Below, piece by piece: positions 9,688 through 41,100 of a stretch of DNA of 64,000 bases. The notes beneath the pieces are model-generated. The model was not told the DNA's origin, ran no database searches, and saw only the letters and a program-made list of their open reading frames with translations. Position 1 is the first letter of the stretch. Every line of letters begins with the position of its first letter. The stretch comes from Minisyncoccota bacterium. GTDB taxonomy: Bacteria; Patescibacteriota; Minisyncoccia; Phycocordibacterales; SBAW01. Both the position numbers and the translations under genes were made by a program. The stretch is taken from positions 32,001 through 96,000 of the forward strand of contig DASZWM010000006.1 in assembly GCA_035546615.1 (NCBI GenBank). Reading direction: 5' to 3'.

Positions 9688-10122
9688 ATGCTTACCATCC
9701 GACTCCAGCGCCGCGGACGCAAGAACGACCCGTCTTTCCGGGTTATTCTCGTTGAGTCCAAGCGTGCAGCAAAGACCGGCAGCTTCCAGGAGGTCCTCGG
9801 CTCATACGACCCGCGCGTTGACCGCACCGACCTCAAGGCCGACCGCATCAAGCACTGGATAGGCATGGGCGCGACCGTTTCCGACACCGTGCACAACATC
9901 CTCATCAATCAGAAAGTCATCGAGGGCAAGAAGATAAACGTGCTCCCGCGCAAGAGCCCGCCGAAGAAGGCGGAAGAGGCGGCTGCAGCCGCTCCCGCAG
10001 CAGAAGCGGCAGCTCCTGAAGCAGCCGAGACCACTGAAGAAAAGGCAGAGGCGACGTCTCCCGAGGCAAAAGCGGAAGAAGCTGTGAATACCGAGGTTGC
10101 TGAGGAAACTCCCGCACAATAG
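9688..10122 (+). CDS. rpsP: 30S ribosomal protein S16 with an Ala/Glu-rich C-terminal extension.
   Basis: MLTIRLQRRGRKNDPSFRVILVESKRAAKTGSFQEVLGSYDP. Confidence 0.9.
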   Translation: MLTIRLQRRGRKNDPSFRVILVESKRAAKTGSFQEVLGSYDPRVDRTDLKADRIKHWIGMGATVSDTVHNILINQKVIEGKKINVLPRKSPPKKAEEAAAAAPAAEAAAPEAAETTEEKAEATSPEAKAEEAVNTEVAEETPAQ

Positions 10123-10235
10123 AATAGAGGCAGGGATTTATCATCAAACGAGTGAGGAACAAAAACGAGTTTTTGATTCCGAGCGAGAGCAGATGATACA
10201 GATTTCCTAATCTTTAATAAACTAAATATACTGAA

Positions 10236-10622
10236 ATGGCAGCAGAGAGAGATCAGGAGTTTTTGGAATTTGTCGTAAAAGGTCTTGTCGAGAATCCGGA
10301 CGCGGTTAAGATAACTCGCGCCGTAGACGAAATGGGCGTTCTTTTGACGCTCGACCTCCATCCGGATGACATGGGCAAGGTTATCGGCCGCTCGGGCAAT
10401 ACCGCCAAGGCAATACGCACGCTTCTTCGCGTCGTTGGCATGAAGCACAATGCCCGCGTGAACCTTAAGATAAACGAACCGGCAGGAGGGCTTCGCGATC
10501 CTGCTATGAGCGCTCCGAGCGGCGGCAGCGCTGCCCAGGGCTGGGACGGCAGCCACGAGGCTCCCGCAACCCCTGCGATGAAGTCGGTGGACGAGGCGAT
10601 GGACGAGCTCTCAAAGTTCTAA
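10236..10622 (+). CDS. KH-domain RNA-binding protein (YlqC/UPF0109 family), as typically found between rpsP and rimM.
   Basis: LVENPDAVKITRAVDEMGVLLTLDLHPDDMGKVIGRSGNTAKAIRTLL. A terminator hairpin GCCGCCGCAAGGCGGC + T-tract follows at 10640-10668. Confidence 0.8.
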   Translation: MAAERDQEFLEFVVKGLVENPDAVKITRAVDEMGVLLTLDLHPDDMGKVIGRSGNTAKAIRTLLRVVGMKHNARVNLKINEPAGGLRDPAMSAPSGGSAAQGWDGSHEAPATPAMKSVDEAMDELSKF

Positions 10623-10693
10623 TCTCAGATATTTTAGCAAAGGCCGCCGCAAGGCGGCTTTTGCTTTTCCCGCCCTCCTTTATACTGTGGAGT

Positions 10694-11500
10694 ATGTATC
10701 CTCCTGTTTCTGACCTGCTCGCAGAGCTCTCTTTATTTCCCGGAAGGGAAGACGGCTTGCGGAAAATTAAAAGGTATAGCAATGAGAAAGTAGCTTTTTA
10801 CCGCTCTTCTGATTTTTCTCATAGCAAGAGAGTGGCGTGGCTTGTATATAGTCTCATCCCATTATTATCAGAGGTAGATAAGACTTTTGATATAGGGCGC
10901 GCTGTGGCTATGGCGCTCGTGCACGACGATGCTGAACTGATAACGGGTGATCATCAAGCTGGTAATAAAAGCAAAATGACCAAAGAGCAGCTTGCTGCAA
11001 TTGCTGACGAAGAACGTGAAGCGATTGCCGCTTTGGCAAAGAGATATCCAAAAACTCTCGGCGGATATGTCTATCAGGACCTAGTACAAGATCTCGCTGA
11101 TCTAAAGAATTCTGAAGCTCATTTTGTTAAGTACTTTGATCGTTTTGATGCTTTGGGGGAGACTTACCATGAACTCTTTGCAGGGAATGTGGTTTGGACG
11201 CAAAACGTAGTTAATGAGTGGGGCATCATTCCCACACCTTTTATGTATTACTACGATAGGCTGCCGCCCATGGTTGAGAAGTATCCGATCCTGACTGCTT
11301 TAAAAGGAAAACATGTATTCTTCGATGTCCCTGAAGCCAGAGAATGGGAATCATTTGTCCTGACTCGTCAGCCTCATACAAAGGATTCAATACTTGCGTC
11401 TACTGGTCATAGGCAATATGATGCCTGGCGCTCTGTTGTTATTGATTCTGCAGATCAAGAAGAAATCGCAAATCTCTACTCTCAACAAGAATACCTATGA
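10694..11500 (+). CDS. HD-domain phosphohydrolase, YfbR-like 5'-deoxynucleotidase family; low-GC insert.
   Basis: HD motif LVHDDAELITGDH. GC is roughly 43% against ~62% in the flanks. It has its own -10 (TATACT) after the upstream terminator. Confidence 0.65.
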   Translation: MYPPVSDLLAELSLFPGREDGLRKIKRYSNEKVAFYRSSDFSHSKRVAWLVYSLIPLLSEVDKTFDIGRAVAMALVHDDAELITGDHQAGNKSKMTKEQLAAIADEEREAIAALAKRYPKTLGGYVYQDLVQDLADLKNSEAHFVKYFDRFDALGETYHELFAGNVVWTQNVVNEWGIIPTPFMYYYDRLPPMVEKYPILTALKGKHVFFDVPEAREWESFVLTRQPHTKDSILASTGHRQYDAWRSVVIDSADQEEIANLYSQQEYL

Positions 11501-12153
11501 ATTTCCATGTCGTAACGCTTTTTCCGGAAGTTATCGAGGCCTATACGAACGCTTCGATACTGGGCCGTGCCCAGAAAGAGAAGAAGTTTTCCGTTAAGAC
11601 CTACCAGCTGCGCGATTTCGTCAGCAATAAATGGGGCAAGGTAGACGAGCGCCCATACGGCGGCGGCCCGGGCATGGTTATCCAGGCCGAGCCGGTCATC
11701 AGGGCAGTCCAGAAAATATCTGGACTTACGAAGTCCAGAATTCGGCCGAAGGTCATTATTACTGCGGCAGGCGGCAAGCCTTTGACCAACGCGTATGCCA
11801 AAGCGCTTTTGAAGCAAAAGGACGTCATAATCGTTTGCGGCAGGTACGAAGGCATCGACGCCCGGGCAAAAAAAGTGCTCAAGGCCGAAGAAGTCTCCGT
11901 TGGGCCGTACATTCTGACCGGGGGCGAGGTTCCGGCCTTGGCAATCATTGATGCGACCGCTCGGCAGATAAAGGGCGTTTTGGGCAAGTTCGAGTCCCTC
12001 GAGGAGTCCCGGGTCGCAAGCCACGAGATATACACCCGCCCCGAGGTCCTGAAAGCAAAAGGAAAGAACTACGCGGTCCCGAAGGTCCTCCTCTCCGGCC
12101 ATCATGCAAAGATGGACCAGTGGAAAGAAAAGAAACGCAGCAAACCCCTATAA
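11497..12153 (+). CDS. trmD: tRNA (guanine37-N1)-methyltransferase.
   Basis: DERPYGGGPGMV signature and SPOUT-fold C-terminus. It carries an in-frame copy of the 25-bp REP-like hairpin at 11716-11742, encoding ISGLTKSRI. Confidence 0.95.
   Translation: MNFHVVTLFPEVIEAYTNASILGRAQKEKKFSVKTYQLRDFVSNKWGKVDERPYGGGPGMVIQAEPVIRAVQKISGLTKSRIRPKVIITAAGGKPLTNAYAKALLKQKDVIIVCGRYEGIDARAKKVLKAEEVSVGPYILTGGEVPALAIIDATARQIKGVLGKFESLEESRVASHEIYTRPEVLKAKGKNYAVPKVLLSGHHAKMDQWKEKKRSKPL
11716..11742 (+). repeat. REP-like palindrome copy 4, in reverse orientation, embedded in frame in trmD.
   Basis: ATATCTGGACTT-ACG-AAGTCCAGAATT. It is the reverse complement of the hairpin found three times at the RAYT locus (37124-37859). 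Confidence 0.7.
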
Positions 12154-12199: not shown

Positions 12200-12438
12200 G
12201 GTATATGAAACCAAAGCGGGGCAGATGATTGTGTATCGAGTGGCGCGGTTTCGATACAAACAGTGGTGAGTGCATCCACCTAAATATTGCTTGAGAAATC
12301 GGGCAAGGGAGCTTCATGCCCCCGCTATTTTTCGTGTTTTGCAGGTGTGGACAGCGTTCTTGTTTTTTTCAAAAAGTAGTGAAGGTTCGCCCTGTGCCTG
12401 CTCCCATTATTAAGTCCGCTCAACTTATTAAACCGCGC

Positions 12439-19293
<6,855 letters not shown>

Positions 19294-31591: not shown

Positions 31592-32584
31592 TTACCAATC
31601 CAATTCTCCAGTTTTATATTCCGTCACGCGTGTCTCGAAGAAGTTCTTCTCCTTCGGCATGTCGGCTATCTCAGACATCCAGGGGAACGGGTTATCGACA
31701 TGATACTGGCGCTCAAGCCCGATGCGCTCCAGCCGGCGGTCGGCCACGTGCTCGACGTACTGCTTCACGCTGGCCGGGGCCAAACCCAGCACCCCGCGCG
31801 GCAGCGCGTCGTCGGCATACTTCTTTTCAAGCTCCACGCCGCGCTTTATGTTGTCGGTCAGCGTCTTTTTGAATTCGGCCGTCCAGATCTCCGGATTCTC
31901 GGCCACGATGGTATTGATGAGGTCCGCGCCGAAAGCCAGGTGCACCGACTCGTCGCGCAGGATGAACTGGAACTGCTCGCCCACGCCCACCATGCGGTTC
32001 TTGCGGAGCATCGAGAGCATCATGGCGAAGCCGGCGTAAAAGAAGATGCCCTCCATGATGACGTAGAAGCCCACGAGGTCGTGCACGAACTTCTGGATGT
32101 TCTCGGTGCCCTGGGTGCTGAAGTTGGGGTCAAACACCGACTTGGTGATATTGGTGACGAACTCGTCCTTTTCGTTGATGGAAGGGATGGTGAGATACAT
32201 GTTGTATATCTCGTCCGGGTTCAGCCCCAGCGTGTCACAGCAGTAGATGAACGTGTCGGTATGGACCGCTTCCTCGTACGCCTGGCGAAGCAGGTACTGG
32301 CGCGCCTCCGGGTTGGTGATGTGGCGGTAAATGGCGAGCACGAGGTTGTTGGCGGTAAGCGACTCGGCGGTCGAGAAGAAGCCGAGGTTCCACATGATCA
32401 TGCGGCGCTCGTCTTCGGAGAGTCCGCCCTGCTTCTTCCAGAGCTCAACGTCCTGCTGCATTGAGACCTCTTCCGGCACCCAGTTGTTGGCCACGCCCTT
32501 CTTGTAGTGCGTGCGCGCCCACGGGTACTTCATCGGAAGTATCTTGTTCGGATCGGTGGTGCTGGCCCCGTTTATTATTCCCAT
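31592..32584 (-). CDS. nrdB: Class I ribonucleotide reductase small (beta/R2) subunit.
   Basis: Di-iron ligand helices (EEAVHTDTF..., FYAGFAMMLSML, ILRDESVHLAFG). The C-terminal tail for alpha interaction is present. Confidence 0.9.
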   Translation of the reverse strand: MGIINGASTTDPNKILPMKYPWARTHYKKGVANNWVPEEVSMQQDVELWKKQGGLSEDERRMIMWNLGFFSTAESLTANNLVLAIYRHITNPEARQYLLRQAYEEAVHTDTFIYCCDTLGLNPDEIYNMYLTIPSINEKDEFVTNITKSVFDPNFSTQGTENIQKFVHDLVGFYVIMEGIFFYAGFAMMLSMLRKNRMVGVGEQFQFILRDESVHLAFGADLINTIVAENPEIWTAEFKKTLTDNIKRGVELEKKYADDALPRGVLGLAPASVKQYVEHVADRRLERIGLERQYHVDNPFPWMSEIADMPKEKNFFETRVTEYKTGELDW

Positions 32585-36312: not shown

Positions 36313-36538
36313 AGTGAGATTTTCTCATTATACCCCCGCGATGCCCGCCGCCCGTATGAAGCGGCGGCCACTTGTGTGTGCACAAGTCAGTCGAAAACTT
36401 TTCTGCAAAAAAGCAACGCCTTCTTTGTGAAAAATGCGGGCTTTCTTCATGTATCAAAGCTTTTTTTGCGCAAATACGCGAAAAGCGGGCCTTTTTGACC
36501 CGCTTTTCGCCTGCCTGGAAGCCTTTTTATCCCACCCG

Positions 36539-37084
36539 CTAAAATGCCACCGGGATAGTCAGCGCCGCGTCGTTCTCCGGCAGGCCGGAGGGGTTGTCTT
36601 TTTTCAAAATGAGTGTTCCTTGCGAGCCTGCGGCCTGGGCGGGGAAGGCAATGGAAACGCTGAAGGGCACGAATTCGGTCGTCATCCACTCGCCTTGCGC
36701 CTGCACGGGGCCCTGCGCCAGCACGGTGCCGTCAGCAGCCCTTAATTCGTAGGGAAAGCTCGCCTCAAAGTACCAAGTTCCACGCGCTTCGCCGGAAACG
36801 GTAAGCGGGGCTTTTGCCGTAGCGCCCGGCTTGGGGGAAGTAACGCGAATAGTGTCCTGCATCGCGATGGCGTTGCCGATGTCTTCGGTAAAGCCCTTGC
36901 CGGAGGGCGTATTGCACTGGCGCGGGTAGCTTTCAAGCACCGGATATCCGGCCGCGACGCATTCTGCAAAGGTAGTCGGCTCAACGGTAGGAGCCTTGGT
37001 GGGGGAGGGCAGCACCAAGATAACCACAAGAGCCGCGACCGCCAAAATAAAAACCCCGATTCCCAAAATCATCCGTTTATCCAT
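36539..37084 (-). CDS. Secreted/membrane-anchored protein with a Gmad2-like Ig-like domain.
   Basis: N-terminal TM/signal anchor. The stretch VTSPKPGATAKAPLTVSGEARGTWYFEASFPYELRAADGTVLAQGPVQAQGEWMTTEFVPFSV resembles Gmad2 (PF10648). Confidence 0.5.
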   Translation of the reverse strand: MDKRMILGIGVFILAVAALVVILVLPSPTKAPTVEPTTFAECVAAGYPVLESYPRQCNTPSGKGFTEDIGNAIAMQDTIRVTSPKPGATAKAPLTVSGEARGTWYFEASFPYELRAADGTVLAQGPVQAQGEWMTTEFVPFSVSIAFPAQAAGSQGTLILKKDNPSGLPENDAALTIPVAF

Positions 37085-37123
37085 AGGCCTATTCTACTCC
37101 CATAAAAAGCAGGCTCAACCCAC

Positions 37124-37148
37124 ATTCTGGACTTCGTAAGTCCAGAAT
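37124..37148. repeat. REP-like hairpin copy 1, overlapping the RAYT stop codon.
   Basis: ATTCTGGACTT-CGT-AAGTCCAGAAT: 11-bp perfect arms and a 3-nt loop. Confidence 0.75.
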
Positions 37149-37942
37149 TATTCCAGGGTCAGCTTTGTAAGCCCCGACAGATCGATATTGTGAAGAAATT
37201 CCCCAGTCTCCTTCTTGAGATCCTCATGCGAAGCCTGAAAAAAGTCCTTAGTAAGTATCGCGGGAAAGTTTTCTGCGCCCGTATAGTCCAAATAACTGCT
37301 CCACTTGTAATTTTCCAGGTGCGAAAGGGCGGCTTTGGCGTTTTCGATGCGCCGGCCGCGCCAATTGCGCGCGCCCGCGCTGTAATCAAGCGGATTAAGG
37401 TGGACGTAATGCAATATGTGCAGTTCGTGCCCGAGCTTCTCAACCCGGACCTTTTTAGTTCTCCCCTGGAAAAGCGTTCCCGAACGCTCGTGCCGCTCGT
37501 TGAAGTATTTCGCGTATCCGATGTTCAGTTTCCTCAAAAATCGCGTAATGCCTCCCTCAACCCGCTCCGAGAGGAGAAGGTGATAGTGGTTTTTCATTAG
37601 GCACCAGCCGTGGATATCCACGAGCCGCTCTTTCTTCGTTAATCCCAATTCTGGACTTCGTAAGTCCAGAATATCGCGCTTGAAAGTATAGTAGGTGCTT
37701 CCCGCCGCGCCGGCGTCGTTGAACTCAAAAAGGTCATACACAAAGCGCATATAATCGCGCTGGTCCGTAAAAAGCACCCGCTTATCGACGCCCCGGTTAA
37801 GCACGTGGAATAATTCCATGCGGGCGACTCTATCATTCTGGACTTCGTAAGTCCAGACAGTGCTAGACATTCGTTTTCTTTCTTGTATAACGTTCTCTAT
37901 GCTGCTCGCGGATAAAGGACAGAGTGATCCTGCAGGCCTCAT
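37148..37942 (-). CDS. REP-associated tyrosine transposase (RAYT) / IS200-like Y1 HuH transposase.
   Basis: N-terminal LFHVLNRGVDKRVLFTDQRDYMRFV, HuH motif CLMKNHYHLLL, and a YVHLNPL catalytic-Tyr helix typical of TnpA_REP. The probable true start is MELFHV at 37819. The longer ORF would translate a REP copy as ...VWTYEVQN.... Confidence 0.7.
   Translation of the reverse strand: MRPAGSLCPLSASSIENVIQERKRMSSTVWTYEVQNDRVARMELFHVLNRGVDKRVLFTDQRDYMRFVYDLFEFNDAGAAGSTYYTFKRDILDLRSPELGLTKKERLVDIHGWCLMKNHYHLLLSERVEGGITRFLRKLNIGYAKYFNERHERSGTLFQGRTKKVRVEKLGHELHILHYVHLNPLDYSAGARNWRGRRIENAKAALSHLENYKWSSYLDYTGAENFPAILTKDFFQASHEDLKKETGEFLHNIDLSGLTKLTLE
37648..37672. repeat. REP-like hairpin copy 2, inside the RAYT coding region (encodes ILDLRSPE).
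   Basis: Identical 25-mer ATTCTGGACTTCGTAAGTCCAGAAT. Confidence 0.75.
37835..37859. repeat. REP-like hairpin copy 3, just 5' of the probable RAYT start.
   Basis: ATTCTGGACTTCGTAAGTCCAGAcA: 23/25 identical to copies 1 and 2. Confidence 0.7.
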
Positions 37943-38127
37943 CGCTCCTTCATGCGACTAATGGCAGTTTAAGAATAGGCCAAGTTCATGAAGCAGGACA
38001 CGAAGCTGCTTTTTGGCAAGCTTGTGGTCGTGTGGATATGGAGTAGGGTATATATAAGAGGTGCATAGTGCACACCTAGGCTGTTCGTTTTATTAACGTG
38101 CGTAAGACGTTTCCTTATAAATTACAT

Positions 38128-41100
38128 ATGAAATCCTGGTACTCCCTTACGGGAATAGTGCTCGCTCTTGTCGTTGTTGCAGGCGCGATGACTTTTTCTA
38201 TTAGCAACGCGCTCGCGATAACCCCCTCGACGGCCGTATACGATTCGACTACGGACCCGCTCCCAGGCAATGTCGCCAGCCTCGGTTTTGAGGCTGTAAG
38301 CACATCGGCCTTCGGCGATTACGTGCATCTTGAGCCCGGCACCGGCCGCGACCTCAAGACCGTGACTGTAACGATGAGCGATTGGGCGCTTGAATCCCAG
38401 AACACTTCTTTCTGCACCAGCTATCCCGCGAAGTGCGTTGACGGCGGCTACATACACCCGCTCACCATCAATATTTACGCCACAAGCTCCGACTCGGACT
38501 TGCCTGGCCCGCTGCTTGCAACAAAAACCCAGGATACTTTTATCCCTTGGCGCCCTGAAGCCGACGAAGAGTGCGGCACTGGTTGGAAAGATGAAGAGGA
38601 TAACTCCTGCTATAACGGCTTTGCCTTTAACGCCGTTTTTGACCTCAGCAGCCTGAATGTAACGCTCCCTGACGATGTTATTGTCAGCATCGCGTACAAC
38701 ACCGCTGATTATGGCGCAGCGCCAATCCATGAGAGCGGACCGTACAACTCGCTTAACGTCGCTATTCCTGATAACCAGCCGGTTGCGGTAGGCAGCGATG
38801 ACAGCGACAACAAGGTATTTTGGGACGCAACCTACCTTGGCCGCACCCCAGGCCTCCGCCAGGATACGGACTGGAGCCCGAACGGCACGGTAGCGATGCG
38901 CATTGATGCGACCGCTCCGGACGTCACCGTTACCATAGACAAGTACATCAACGGAGTGAAAGCGACTACTGTGAACACCAATAGCGCCTCCTTCCCGATG
39001 AAGTCCACCTGGGATGCCGACAATATCGGCGCAGGCACGGGCACCTATACCCTTGATGCGGGCAATTCGTACGAGGCGGTTACTTCCGAGATGACCTCGG
39101 GCGCCGACTACAAGACGCATGAGACCTCGCCTGAGGAATGCACCGCCGACTATCCGTACAAGCTGAAGGGCTACAGCGTTGGAGACTCCCTCGGACAGGC
39201 CGAAACTGCCGATATAGAGAGCGACGAGCCTGAATTCGAGAACATCACGACGAACAAGTACGTCATCGTGTGGAACGTTACCTGCCCTCCAGCGCCGACG
39301 CTCCTGACTCCCGCCAACGACAGCACCCTCACTACGGCTACGGCATTGAGCGCGGATTGGACGGACGTGACGGATTGGGCGGGACCAATAACGTACCTCT
39401 ACGAATCTTCAAATTCCGCCTCTACCAACTCTGACGGCTCGTTCACCTCGCCGGTCTATACCTCCGGACCGCTTGCCACGTCGGAAATCCCCACGACCGG
39501 CACGCCGGAAGGCACCTACTACTGGCACGCAAAGGCGGTGGATAATGCGGGCAACTCAGGCCCCTGGGCTAACGCATTCAAAGTAACCATAGATAACAAT
39601 CCGGATACGACTCCTCCGGCAGTAACCGTTACGCCGGTTCCGGGAAGCACGCTGAGCGGTACTGTTACTTTCACTATTACGGTGACCGACAACAAGCCTC
39701 TTGACCTAAGCAAGCTCACCAACATCTGGTCATACTTGTACAATTCTGAGCCGCCGCAGGCCTCGCAAGGCGCAGGCGTTGCCTTCTCGGCTACGGGCGA
39801 CCCGAAGGTAGTGCAGGGTACTCTCACCGTAGACACGACCTTGCTTGCCAACGGCACTGCATGGCTCGATGTGGGCCAGCTTGAGGATGCAGCAGGCAAC
39901 AAGTCAGGCGCCACAACCGACAACTACTTCCACGATTACACTATCCAAAACGACGAGGCGCCGATATGCAGCGAGCCGAATGACGTAGAGGCGTCGGTCA
40001 GTAGCGACACTACCACTACGGTAGATGAAGGCGCGAATTCAGTCATCATCACCTCCATCCCGGGCGTACTCCCTGGTGCATGGTCTGCAAATATACCGGG
40101 AGCATCCTGGATCTGGAGCGACATGCCGACCGAGGAGAACAACTACTCCAATACCGTTGGACCGAAGGTGTTCACGAAGACCTTCGAGATCGACGGCATT
40201 CCGCAGGACTCTACGCTTGATATCGCGGCAGACAATACCTACACCGTCATGGTGAACGGCAATGTCATCGATACCGGCACATCCGGCACCGATACCGACA
40301 ACTTCAGCTCGGCAGACTCATGGACCATTCCGGCGGCTGACCTGGTAACGGGAGAGAATACCCTTACCATTACGGTAACCAATACCGAGGCCCCGGAAGG
40401 CTATACGGGCCCGAACCCTGGCGGCCTGCTTTACAGCCTCACGGTTCGCAGCCAGAACTGCACAACGCCTGAGCCGACAGCGCTAAAGGTCCATATCTTC
40501 AAATATCTCTCGGCGGACGAGGATATACAGCAGATACCCAACAACGCTGAGGATGTACCGATTTTCCCGATGAAGGCGAATTACGACATCGCGGGCGTTG
40601 GCAGCAACTTAGGCGAAGGCGACCCCTATAATCTTGGCGACGGCGGCGGGGTAGGCGGCAGCGACGGCGGCCTCAAATGGGCTGCAAATACTATTGCGCT
40701 TAGCCCGGGCGACTACTATGCCACGCACGAGGTCACTGACACGGAAAGCAGCCCTGTAGTGTCTGAGTGTGTACCGGGCAAATATAAGCTTCTTGGTTAC
40801 CAAGTAGGAGACTCTCTTGAAGATGCTCAGAATGCTGAAATCTCTACCACACCACCGTCATTCCCTAACATTCAGGAAGACAAGTACGTAATCGTAGTCA
40901 ACGAGGCCTGCGACGCGCCGACCCCGGAAGAGCCGGAGACTGGCTCGCTCACGATCGTTAAGCACACCATAGGCGGCGACGATACGTTTAACTTCAGCAT
41001 TACCCAGGGAGAACATGCAACTTCCACAAGCGTTGTTACCGATAACTTTAGCGGACAGACCGATCCGATAACGCTTCCTGCTGGTAACTACAACGTCACT

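Follow-up and report, generated by a model that had tools for sequence, protein, structure and literature searches.

A class-2 Y1 HuH transposase gene in a Patescibacteria genome is flanked by, and carries in frame, hairpins that appear to evolve with it

The 64,000-nt stretch analysed here (contig DASZWM010000006.1 of a Minisyncoccota bacterium, positions 32,001 to 96,000; hereafter the window; its hairpin copies were counted within these 64 kb of the source genome) contains a gene for a Y1 HuH transposase that is accompanied by three copies of a short hairpin, one before its start codon, one in frame within its coding sequence and one at its stop codon. Comparison with relatives from the candidate phyla radiation (CPR, Patescibacteria) indicates that the internal hairpin appears to be an ancient, maintained feature of the gene and not the trace of a one-off invasion. 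We hold, with moderate confidence, that gene and hairpins form a cassette of the REPtron/IS200-like kind, in which a Y1 HuH enzyme is accompanied by its own cognate single-strand hairpins, here in a CPR version. Repetitive extragenic palindromes (REPs) and REP-associated tyrosine transposases (RAYTs) have been studied almost entirely in Proteobacteria and Cyanobacteria, and our literature search found no paper linking a RAYT or a REPtron to CPR/Patescibacteria.

The gene, its catalytic motifs (both placed by alignment) and the four hairpin copies of the window are located as follows.

37151 to 37819, minus strand: Y1 HuH gene, 223 aa, stop codon at 37148-37150
37580 to 37588, minus strand: HuH motif H78-Y79-H80
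37406 to 37408, minus strand: catalytic Tyr138 (YVHLNP)
37837 to 37857: upstream hairpin, in the 5' untranslated region (UTR), 17 nt before the ATG (37819), plus strand TCTGGACTT-CGT-AAGTCCAGA, 9-bp arms
37648 to 37672: internal hairpin, in frame at codons I50-L58 (ILDLRSPEL), 11-bp arms
37124 to 37148: downstream hairpin, one-base overlap with the stop codon, 11-bp arms
11719 to 11739, opposite strand: solo hairpin, in frame within trmD (11497-12153, plus strand), 9-bp arms

The protein is a Y1 HuH enzyme with a class-2 (RAYT-type) tyrosine helix, as a first-pass annotation made from the sequence alone had claimed, and the domain match, the invariant catalytic residues and the structural matches all bear this out. 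Specifically, Pfam PF01797 (Y1_Tnp) matches residues 104-169 of the 264-aa open reading frame (ORF) with 25.1 bits (E=2e-5), narrowly above its gathering score of 23. In an alignment with 43 homologues, N77, H78, Y79 and H80 as well as Y138, H140, N142 and P143 are invariant. The motifs read from the sequence are KNHYH, LFQGR, YVHLNP and WSSY, and the tyrosine motif is Y---NP (residues 138-143), that of TnpAY1 class 2 and not the Y---Q of class 1 (Table 1, PMC6006769). With an AlphaFold model built on the homologue alignment, all 23 Foldseek matches in the PDB at E<=0.001 are TnpA of IS608, ISDra2 or IS200, or TnpAREP 4er8, the best being IS608/ISDra2 TnpA and 4er8. Matching the motifs to Table 1 of PMC6006769 would place the protein in TnpAY1 subclass 2.1 (Bertels Group 1). 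Y1_Tnp is the only Pfam domain found in it at E<=0.01, and Pfam detects no C-terminal helix-turn-helix (HTH) or DnaA-like domain of the kind seen in subclass 2.1. The window contains no TnpB and no second Y1 gene, and no TnpB-sized ORF adjoins the gene.

The longest ORF at the locus (37148-37942, minus strand) has 264 aa, and the start was set at MELFHVLNRG (37819) from the alignment with the 43 homologues. Because these begin with MELFH, and not with the earlier ATG that opens the 264-aa ORF, the upstream hairpin lies in the 5' UTR; of the two placements offered before, 5' flank or N-terminal extension, only the flank holds. The 264-aa ORF over-extends the gene through the upstream hairpin (window 37820-37942; …VWTYEVQNDRVAR-MELFH…), and the N-terminal extensions of the database entries P0003, P0004, P0016, P0087, P0108 and P0112 come from translation of upstream hairpins, whose stem is shared with the internal hairpin. 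For annotation, the consequence is that upstream hairpins are translated as false N-terminal extensions, in the 264-aa ORF as in several database entries.

The 25-mer ATTCTGGACTTCGTAAGTCCAGAAT occurs exactly at 37124-37148 and 37648-37672, with 0 occurrences expected from dinucleotide shuffles. Three perfect copies had been reported; the third, at 37835-37859, has two mismatches to the 25-mer (…CCAGAcA), and its palindrome is the 21 nt at 37837-37857. The placement of the first copy over the stop codon and of the second inside the coding sequence was correct. The first-pass annotation had also treated recurrence of the hairpin away from the gene and the absence of TnpB as decisive for its reading; within the window the hairpin does recur, in trmD, and TnpB is absent. 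Three of the four copies sit at the Y1 gene, and a looser scan of the 64 kb with GGACTTNNNAAGTCC (<=2 mismatches) added matches at chance level only. Folding, proposed earlier for the flanks as RNA, was done on single-stranded DNA, where each copy gives the expected hairpin (-8.6 to -10 kcal/mol, z-scores -3.3 to -5.6). All three loops at the gene read CGT on the plus strand and so share one orientation, which for the upstream copy is atypical of the family. From upstream to downstream hairpin the span is ~735 bp, a unit of ~0.74 kb, and the downstream copy lies within the 66-nt spacer ahead of a Gmad2-domain gene (36539-37084, minus strand). A degenerate half-copy proposed just before the stop codon (~37164-37178) did not survive inspection: it shares ~11/16 bases with one arm by our count, has no partner arm and encodes the usual C-terminus of the family.

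Readings of the repeats as a clustered regularly interspaced short palindromic repeat (CRISPR) array or as tRNA-like were dropped, given the irregular spacing (524 and 187 nt) and only four copies. An Rfam search of window 36400-38400 matched no family, and a scan of viral contigs with a 19-mer core of the hairpin returned nothing. A promoter/terminator scan was uninformative, with counts near the shuffle expectation, and the hairpins have no T-run. Directly after the downstream hairpin, at 37109-37123 (minus strand), there is a weak terminator-like stem with a T-run, in a region where counts are likewise near the shuffle expectation; it overlaps a promoter-like site of the Gmad2-domain gene.

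The same layout recurs in relatives. A protein search yielded 2,750 relatives at E<=1e-5, and the best 120 of these are 52-100% identical, every source name given being from Patescibacteria (Paceibacterota, Kaiserbacteria, Parcubacteria). One genome per species was scanned for the 19-mer core. In a Saccharibacteria metagenome-assembled genome (MAG), six exact cores were found, four of them around a homologous Y1 gene: one ahead of the start, one in frame at the corresponding place in the protein, one after the stop and one further on. The sole 19-mer match outside CPR (L001 5094-5112), one copy inside a coding sequence of an Acidobacteriaceae MAG (…DGWTYEVQANG…), is probably due to chance; by our own estimate, ~4 chance matches are expected in the 596 Gb searched.

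We compared 13 DNA loci of the family (window, L004, L008, L009, L012 and L015-L022). Their perfect hairpins have a 3-nt loop and 9-16-bp arms and occupy three positions: -22 to -57 relative to the ATG, in frame at +144 to +168, and at or overlapping the stop codon. In L015, L017, L018 and L021 the downstream hairpin adjoins or supplies the stop codon, and in L015 and L017 the TGA is part of it. Ten of the 13 loci have the internal hairpin, in one shared protein loop and codon phase (as an inverted doublet in L018 and in imperfect form in L016), and its peptide footprint is found in 87/104 homologues. The hairpin loops of the relatives are oriented, in gene sense, as cgt upstream (10/12 loci) and acg downstream (10/11 loci), so that the flanking copies are mutually inverted in 10/11 relatives, unlike those of the window. 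In the predicted model, the internal hairpin region (residues 48-60) has a predicted local distance difference test score (pLDDT) below 50 and lies between helix 20-32 (alphaA) and strand 67-74, which leads into the HuH motif; the loop varies in length across the family. The internal hairpin thus probably occupies a tolerant, surface-exposed loop. The first-pass annotation had regarded the gene as invaded by its own REP, suggesting a recent accident. The fixed loop and phase in 10/13 loci, the footprint in 87/104 homologues and the presence of an equivalent element in a sister family (below) argue against this.

The stems differ widely between loci while remaining paired, as the following hairpins show.

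Window and several loci: …CTGGACTT-cgt-AAGTCCAG…
L020: ATGTGGGATTT-cgt-AAATCCCACAT
L019: TCGGGAGAT-cgt-ATCTCCCGA
L015: ATGATTGATTT-acg-AAATCAATCAT
L017: ATGACCGACAT-cgt-ATGTCGGTCAT
L022: ATGTTCGAGTT-cgt-AACTCGAACAT
L021: TTCTGGGTTT-cgt-AAACCCAGAA

In an alignment of 30 hairpins, 92.6% of cells pair, compared with 65.5% after shuffling and 24-43% when partners are slid by 1-3 columns. Both sides have changed in 10/13 pairs (91 cells), and G-U occurs in only 7/390 cells. The palindrome is Watson-Crick and therefore DNA-level. In line with this, the peptide at the internal site alternates between D-L-R and D-F-V (also E/D-I-R and E/D-I-V), as expected from inversion of the 3-nt loop, TTA-CGA and TTC-GTA being its two orientations. 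Among the 104 homologues, 87 are coupled (L-R 55, F-V 12, I-R 10, I-V 10) versus 2 uncoupled L-V and 0 F-R. Additionally, the reading frame differs between sites: the copy in trmD reads GLTKSR, that in the Y1 gene LDLRSP. A palindrome-encodability test of homologue peptides was rejected, as peptides rich in L, S and R, e.g. YHLLLSERVEGG, give false stems of 15-17 bp.

The internal copy appears to evolve in concert with the flanking copies. The 13-nt arms of hairpins from one locus have an identity of 0.80, those of hairpins from different loci 0.59 (permutation p<=2e-4). Internal hairpins are 0.77-1.0 identical to the cognate flanks of their own genome, the lower values (0.69 for L012 UP1, 0.46 for L015 DOWN2) involving second hairpin types, and only 0.60 identical to the internal hairpins at the homologous site of different genomes. 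In L017 a new stem type has taken over at the flanks and the internal site is a decayed copy of the old GGACTT type; this single case suggests that perfect pairing is kept only while the hairpin fits the current specificity. The outer arms of copies within one genome may also differ and yet stay paired (11, 15 and 16 bp in L009), which argues for pairing as such over a fixed double-stranded recognition sequence. Taken together, covariation and within-genome homogenisation support the hairpins as the likely cognate repeats of the Y1 protein.

Dispersed hairpins are few and mostly intergenic, beside ORF ends. Some are inverted doublets (L007, L018 13926-13968), and others lie inside ORFs (L014, trmD of the window). 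The window trmD copy encodes part of ISGLTKSRIRP (…QKISGLTKSRIRPKV…), a variable loop of TrmD; alignment to Staphylococcus aureus TrmD gives a 4-aa length difference at this loop. The Saccharibacteria MAG has this hairpin, with arms of 15 bp, ~17 nt past the trmD stop codon (L003 5056-5086), and its recurrence at trmD may be coincidental. The intergenic inverted doublets (L018 13926-13968; L007 1028-1069) resemble miniature REPINs (REP doublets forming hairpins). Within one 20-kb stretch, L018 contains three hairpin types (GGATTT, GGGAGAT and GGACTT; 9925-10700 and 13926-13968).

Paralogous Y1 genes with NHVH/YIHLNP motifs (L015:1-517 and L016:1583-2275; 32-33% identity) lie 8-10 kb from the family-1 gene. 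They are flanked by a different palindrome, …CAAGGC-gac-GCCTTG… (CAAGGCgacGCCTTG), and have no internal copy, which fits one hairpin type per enzyme, as judged from these loci. In L020, the intact gene has a 5'-truncated second Y1 copy behind it in tandem (11131-11544), which was not annotated in the gene calls; this copy covers residues 77-214, shares 49% identity with the window protein and has the imperfect hairpin AAGGACATcgtAAGTCCTT after it at 11574-11592. Beside the Y1 gene of L015, a gyrA-like gene (12263-14810) is called in pieces, one of them with a faint match to intein splicing; it may contain an intein or be fragmented.

The gene's neighbours are conserved. By comparison of gene calls, the window and the locus of homologue P0002, 75% identical, are syntenic (Y1, Gmad2-domain gene, ribonucleotide reductase). 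The Y1 gene is divergently adjacent to the glyceraldehyde-3-phosphate dehydrogenase (GAPDH) gene in L004 (Saccharibacteria), L019 and L020 (Kaiserbacteria) and L022 (Parcubacteria), with rpiB, rpe and transketolase genes beyond GAPDH in L019, L020 and L022. These conserved neighbours indicate long vertical inheritance, and the cassette in the window's lineage looks resident and vertically inherited, not actively hopping.

A sister family behaves in a more IS200-like manner. A superfamily search over 1.84 billion cluster representatives gave 15,342 of them at E<=1e-3. Few of the distant ones (8/134) show the peptide footprint of family 1, and EV[GQEK][LP] stands in the same loop in 18/134. A family based on P0134, whose identity to the window protein is 45%, comprises 5,809 members at E<=1e-20, hosted by Azam-, Wolfe-, Colwell-, Lipton- and Brennerbacteria. 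Its site reads SYEV[GQEK]LRKI or SYEAKPRKI, the translation of TACGAAGT-nnn-ACTTCGTA, and in both families the centre of the hairpin coincides with codon position 1, which at the level of sequence is compatible with the in-gene element having arisen once, long ago. A 585-kb contig holds two genes for one member, P0279, within a 901-bp repeat (99.9% identity) in different contexts.

L023 9955-10877: family-2 cassette copy, gene and five hairpins
L024 9955-10917: family-2 cassette copy, gene and five hairpins

The repeat begins at the first base of the upstream hairpin, includes, at the homologous loop, a hairpin in frame whose arms are 15 bp long, and has two downstream hairpins. A second hairpin type, TATCGAGGT-tcg-ACCTCGATAGTCC, follows both copies, directly in one and past a 40-bp indel in the other; this second type (TATCGAGGTtcgACCTCGATAGTCC) could belong to the unit or serve as a target site. 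The whole hairpin-bounded cassette has thus been copied recently in this family. Moreover, the family-2 arm ACTTCGTAAG (L023 10171-10203) equals the centre of the family-1 hairpin, GG[ACTTCGTAAG]TCC (window 37648-37672), so that the longer family-2 hairpin looks like an inverted doublet of family-1 cores; inverted doublets are possibly a route to new hairpin types. A solo family-2 hairpin lies in frame within a beta-propeller protein gene (L024 9406-9437; …NNLQIYEVQLRKITEK…), where its peptide is the same as in the Y1 genes.

We propose that the protein would bind the hairpins in single-stranded DNA, for example at the replication fork, and would cut and rejoin DNA beside them, by analogy with the biochemistry of IS608 TnpA and Escherichia coli TnpAREP. 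The latter cleaves and rejoins cognate single-stranded REPs, perfect palindromes included (PMC8266576). Such activity could occasionally copy a hairpin or the whole cassette elsewhere and keep the copies alike. The internal copy would be tolerated since the low-confidence predicted loop is probably surface-exposed, and may have been retained from before the split of the two families at 45% identity. Our leading guess for its role is a cis site by which the enzyme would be kept acting on, or restrained at, its own gene. A stronger form of this idea, which we put forward tentatively and consider unlikely, is that the in-frame hairpin is a functional cis element and no mere passenger, kept at one loop and codon phase and re-matched to the flanks whenever specificity drifts, because action on its own gene would be required of the enzyme, for example by self-limiting cleavage, by binding that throttles expression, or by exchange or excision of the segment between hairpins. 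This would cover at least two CPR Y1 families, 45% identical and with thousands of members, and, if true, would make this the first HuH enzyme with its recognition site as an obligatory part of its own coding sequence.

Several observations weigh against the cassette explanation or parts of it. The hidden Markov model check proposed earlier gave a divided answer: the protein passes PF01797 but fails the NCBIfam RAYT equivalog NF047646 (REP_Tyr_transpos; 28.3 bits, E=1.4e-6, cut-off 80). A PDB sequence profile search returned only 4er8, at a non-significant E=0.79, and the structural model is of moderate quality (mean pLDDT 66). No conserved flanking bases, GT[AG]G foot, guide or cleavage motif were found around 34 oriented hairpins. 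The copy number is very low, with 4 in 64 kb and 6 exact cores in one whole Saccharibacteria MAG, and the case for dissemination is weak because of it. Palindromic covariation alone is also compatible with a symmetric double-stranded binding site. Finally, the internal hairpin has been lost or has decayed in 3/13 loci (L008, L017 and L021) with the gene and flanking hairpins intact, and is therefore not essential. The REP/RAYT reading of the first-pass annotation is hence upheld in its cognate, covarying hairpins and class-2 helix, but not in the RAYT equivalog match, the GT[AG]G foot or the copy number of a typical REP system.

Much of the layout would also suit an autonomous IS200-like insertion sequence (IS) that moves as a single-stranded circle, with the flanking hairpins as the left and right ends of a 0.74-kb unit and the internal hairpin as a passenger. 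Size and arrangement (~735 bp between hairpins) are IS200-like, the sister family has a 0.9-kb hairpin-bounded unit twice on one contig at 99.9% identity in different contexts, family members occupy differing genomic contexts across lineages, and Group 1 is the most IS-like RAYT group (Bertels et al., PMC5581495). We nevertheless regard this explanation as improbable for the family: the 64-kb window has one copy and no second Y1 gene, synteny is shared with the 75%-identical homologue, and the GAPDH adjacency is kept from Saccharibacteria to Kaiserbacteria. The tyrosine motif is the class-2 Y...NP and not the Y...Q of IS200 (PMC6006769 Table 1), the flanking loops are inverted in 10/11 relatives whereas IS200/IS605 ends lie on one strand, and solo hairpins exist without the gene.

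That the copies fall in the 5' UTR, the coding sequence and just past the stop codon of one gene could also mean that they are RNA hairpins or double-stranded operators controlling this transcript (by end protection, ribosome pausing or a repressor) and not substrates of the Y1 protein. REPs located downstream of genes are believed to function as RNA elements (PMC3733652), and a symmetric dimer on double-stranded DNA would also yield palindromic covariation. This explanation seems to us quite improbable, as G-U is nearly absent (7/390 cells), unlike in selected RNA structures, and the outer arms vary within one genome but stay perfectly paired (L009). Copies moreover lie in both orientations and in unrelated genes or spacers, there is no Rfam match, and Pfam detects no HTH domain. 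A last explanation, that the internal hairpin is a mere conserved peptide motif (D-L-R-S-P) and the flanking copies are due to chance or are gene-derived fragments, draws on the related peptide found at the site in most homologues. It is refuted by the shuffle expectation of 0, by the coupled loop flips (87 coupled versus 2 uncoupled cases, DLR/DFV and EIR/EIV) and by stems that change through paired substitutions, and trmD has the same DNA in another frame; we consider it extremely improbable.

REPtrons, perfect-palindrome REPs, REPs in host ORFs and in-frame REPs in tnpAREP have all been published (PMC6006769, PMC8266576, PMC3733652). What differs here are the CPR hosts, a 2.1-like protein (a type reported without REPs), the absence of a GTAG foot and the very low copy number, as well as an in-gene hairpin upstream of the HuH motif, at a fixed site and phase, that appears to co-evolve in most close homologues examined. 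The results show a very large CPR clade of Y1 enzymes to carry simple perfect hairpins that co-evolve with, and are embedded in, the gene. With tiny genomes and few hairpins, every copy can be tracked, which offers a natural experiment on the joint change of specificity of a HuH enzyme and its site. The system may also shed light on how IS200-like elements and domesticated RAYTs pass into one another.

Among known systems, REPtrons (E. coli TnpAREP 4er8; PMC6006769; PMC8266576) share with the cassette described here a Y1 HuH protein with Y...NP, encoded by a single-copy, mostly vertically inherited gene. That gene is flanked by short palindromes also found elsewhere (here the solo copy in trmD), and the hairpin type is paralogue-specific and apparently co-evolves with the gene, with flanks mutually inverted in most relatives. 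Unlike in REPtrons, the three copies in the window share one loop orientation and so are not inverted flanks, no GT[AG]G foot is found, the copy number is very low as opposed to tens to hundreds, the NCBIfam RAYT model fails, and the stems, 9-16 bp around a 3-nt loop, are perfect Watson-Crick palindromes. Canonical REPs likewise have a 5' GT[AG]G (or CGTC) foot, lacking here, and are high-copy and mostly extragenic, whereas here 4 copies are found in 64 kb, three of them at the gene.

Subclass 2.1, or Group 1 (TIRYT-like, after the tyrosine transposases associated with terminal inverted repeats), agrees in the motifs NH[YF]H, FQ, Y[IV]HLNP and SS tail (Table 1, PMC6006769) and in length (~220-240 aa), and its standing as the most IS-like RAYT group (PMC5581495) fits the duplicated cassette of the sister family. 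Automatic and manual searches found no REP-like sequences beside subclass 2.1 genes (PMC6006769), whereas hairpins are obvious here; the C-terminal HTH (Bac_DnaA_C, HTH_23, HTH_28) is not detected by Pfam, and no long terminal inverted repeats were seen at our loci. The subclass 2.1 hosts listed in PMC6006769 are all Proteobacteria, those here CPR. Subclass 2.4 (Cyanobacteria/Bacteroidetes) resembles our family in having in-frame cognate REPs inside tnpAREP, in a peripheral variable region (PMC6006769). However, the internal hairpin here lies at codons 50-58, before the HuH motif (78-80) and so on its other side, and keeps one site and codon phase across the family, and the 2.4 motifs are NH[IFV]H, WQ and YIxNNP.

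TnpA proteins of the IS200/IS605 group (IS608, ISDra2, IS200) are the best structural matches, and subterminal hairpins, a small unit and, in the sister family, whole copying are shared with them; in contrast, the cassette has no Y...Q and no TnpB, is single-copy in the window, shows conserved synteny and has inverted end loops in most relatives. Lastly, the copies in trmD and in the beta-propeller gene of L024 are translated as protein loops, as are the Rickettsia palindromic elements (RPEs) and intragenic REPs (Di Nocera et al. 2013, PMC3733652), but the elements described here are far shorter (21-33 nt) than RPEs and are tied to a Y1 gene that itself carries one.

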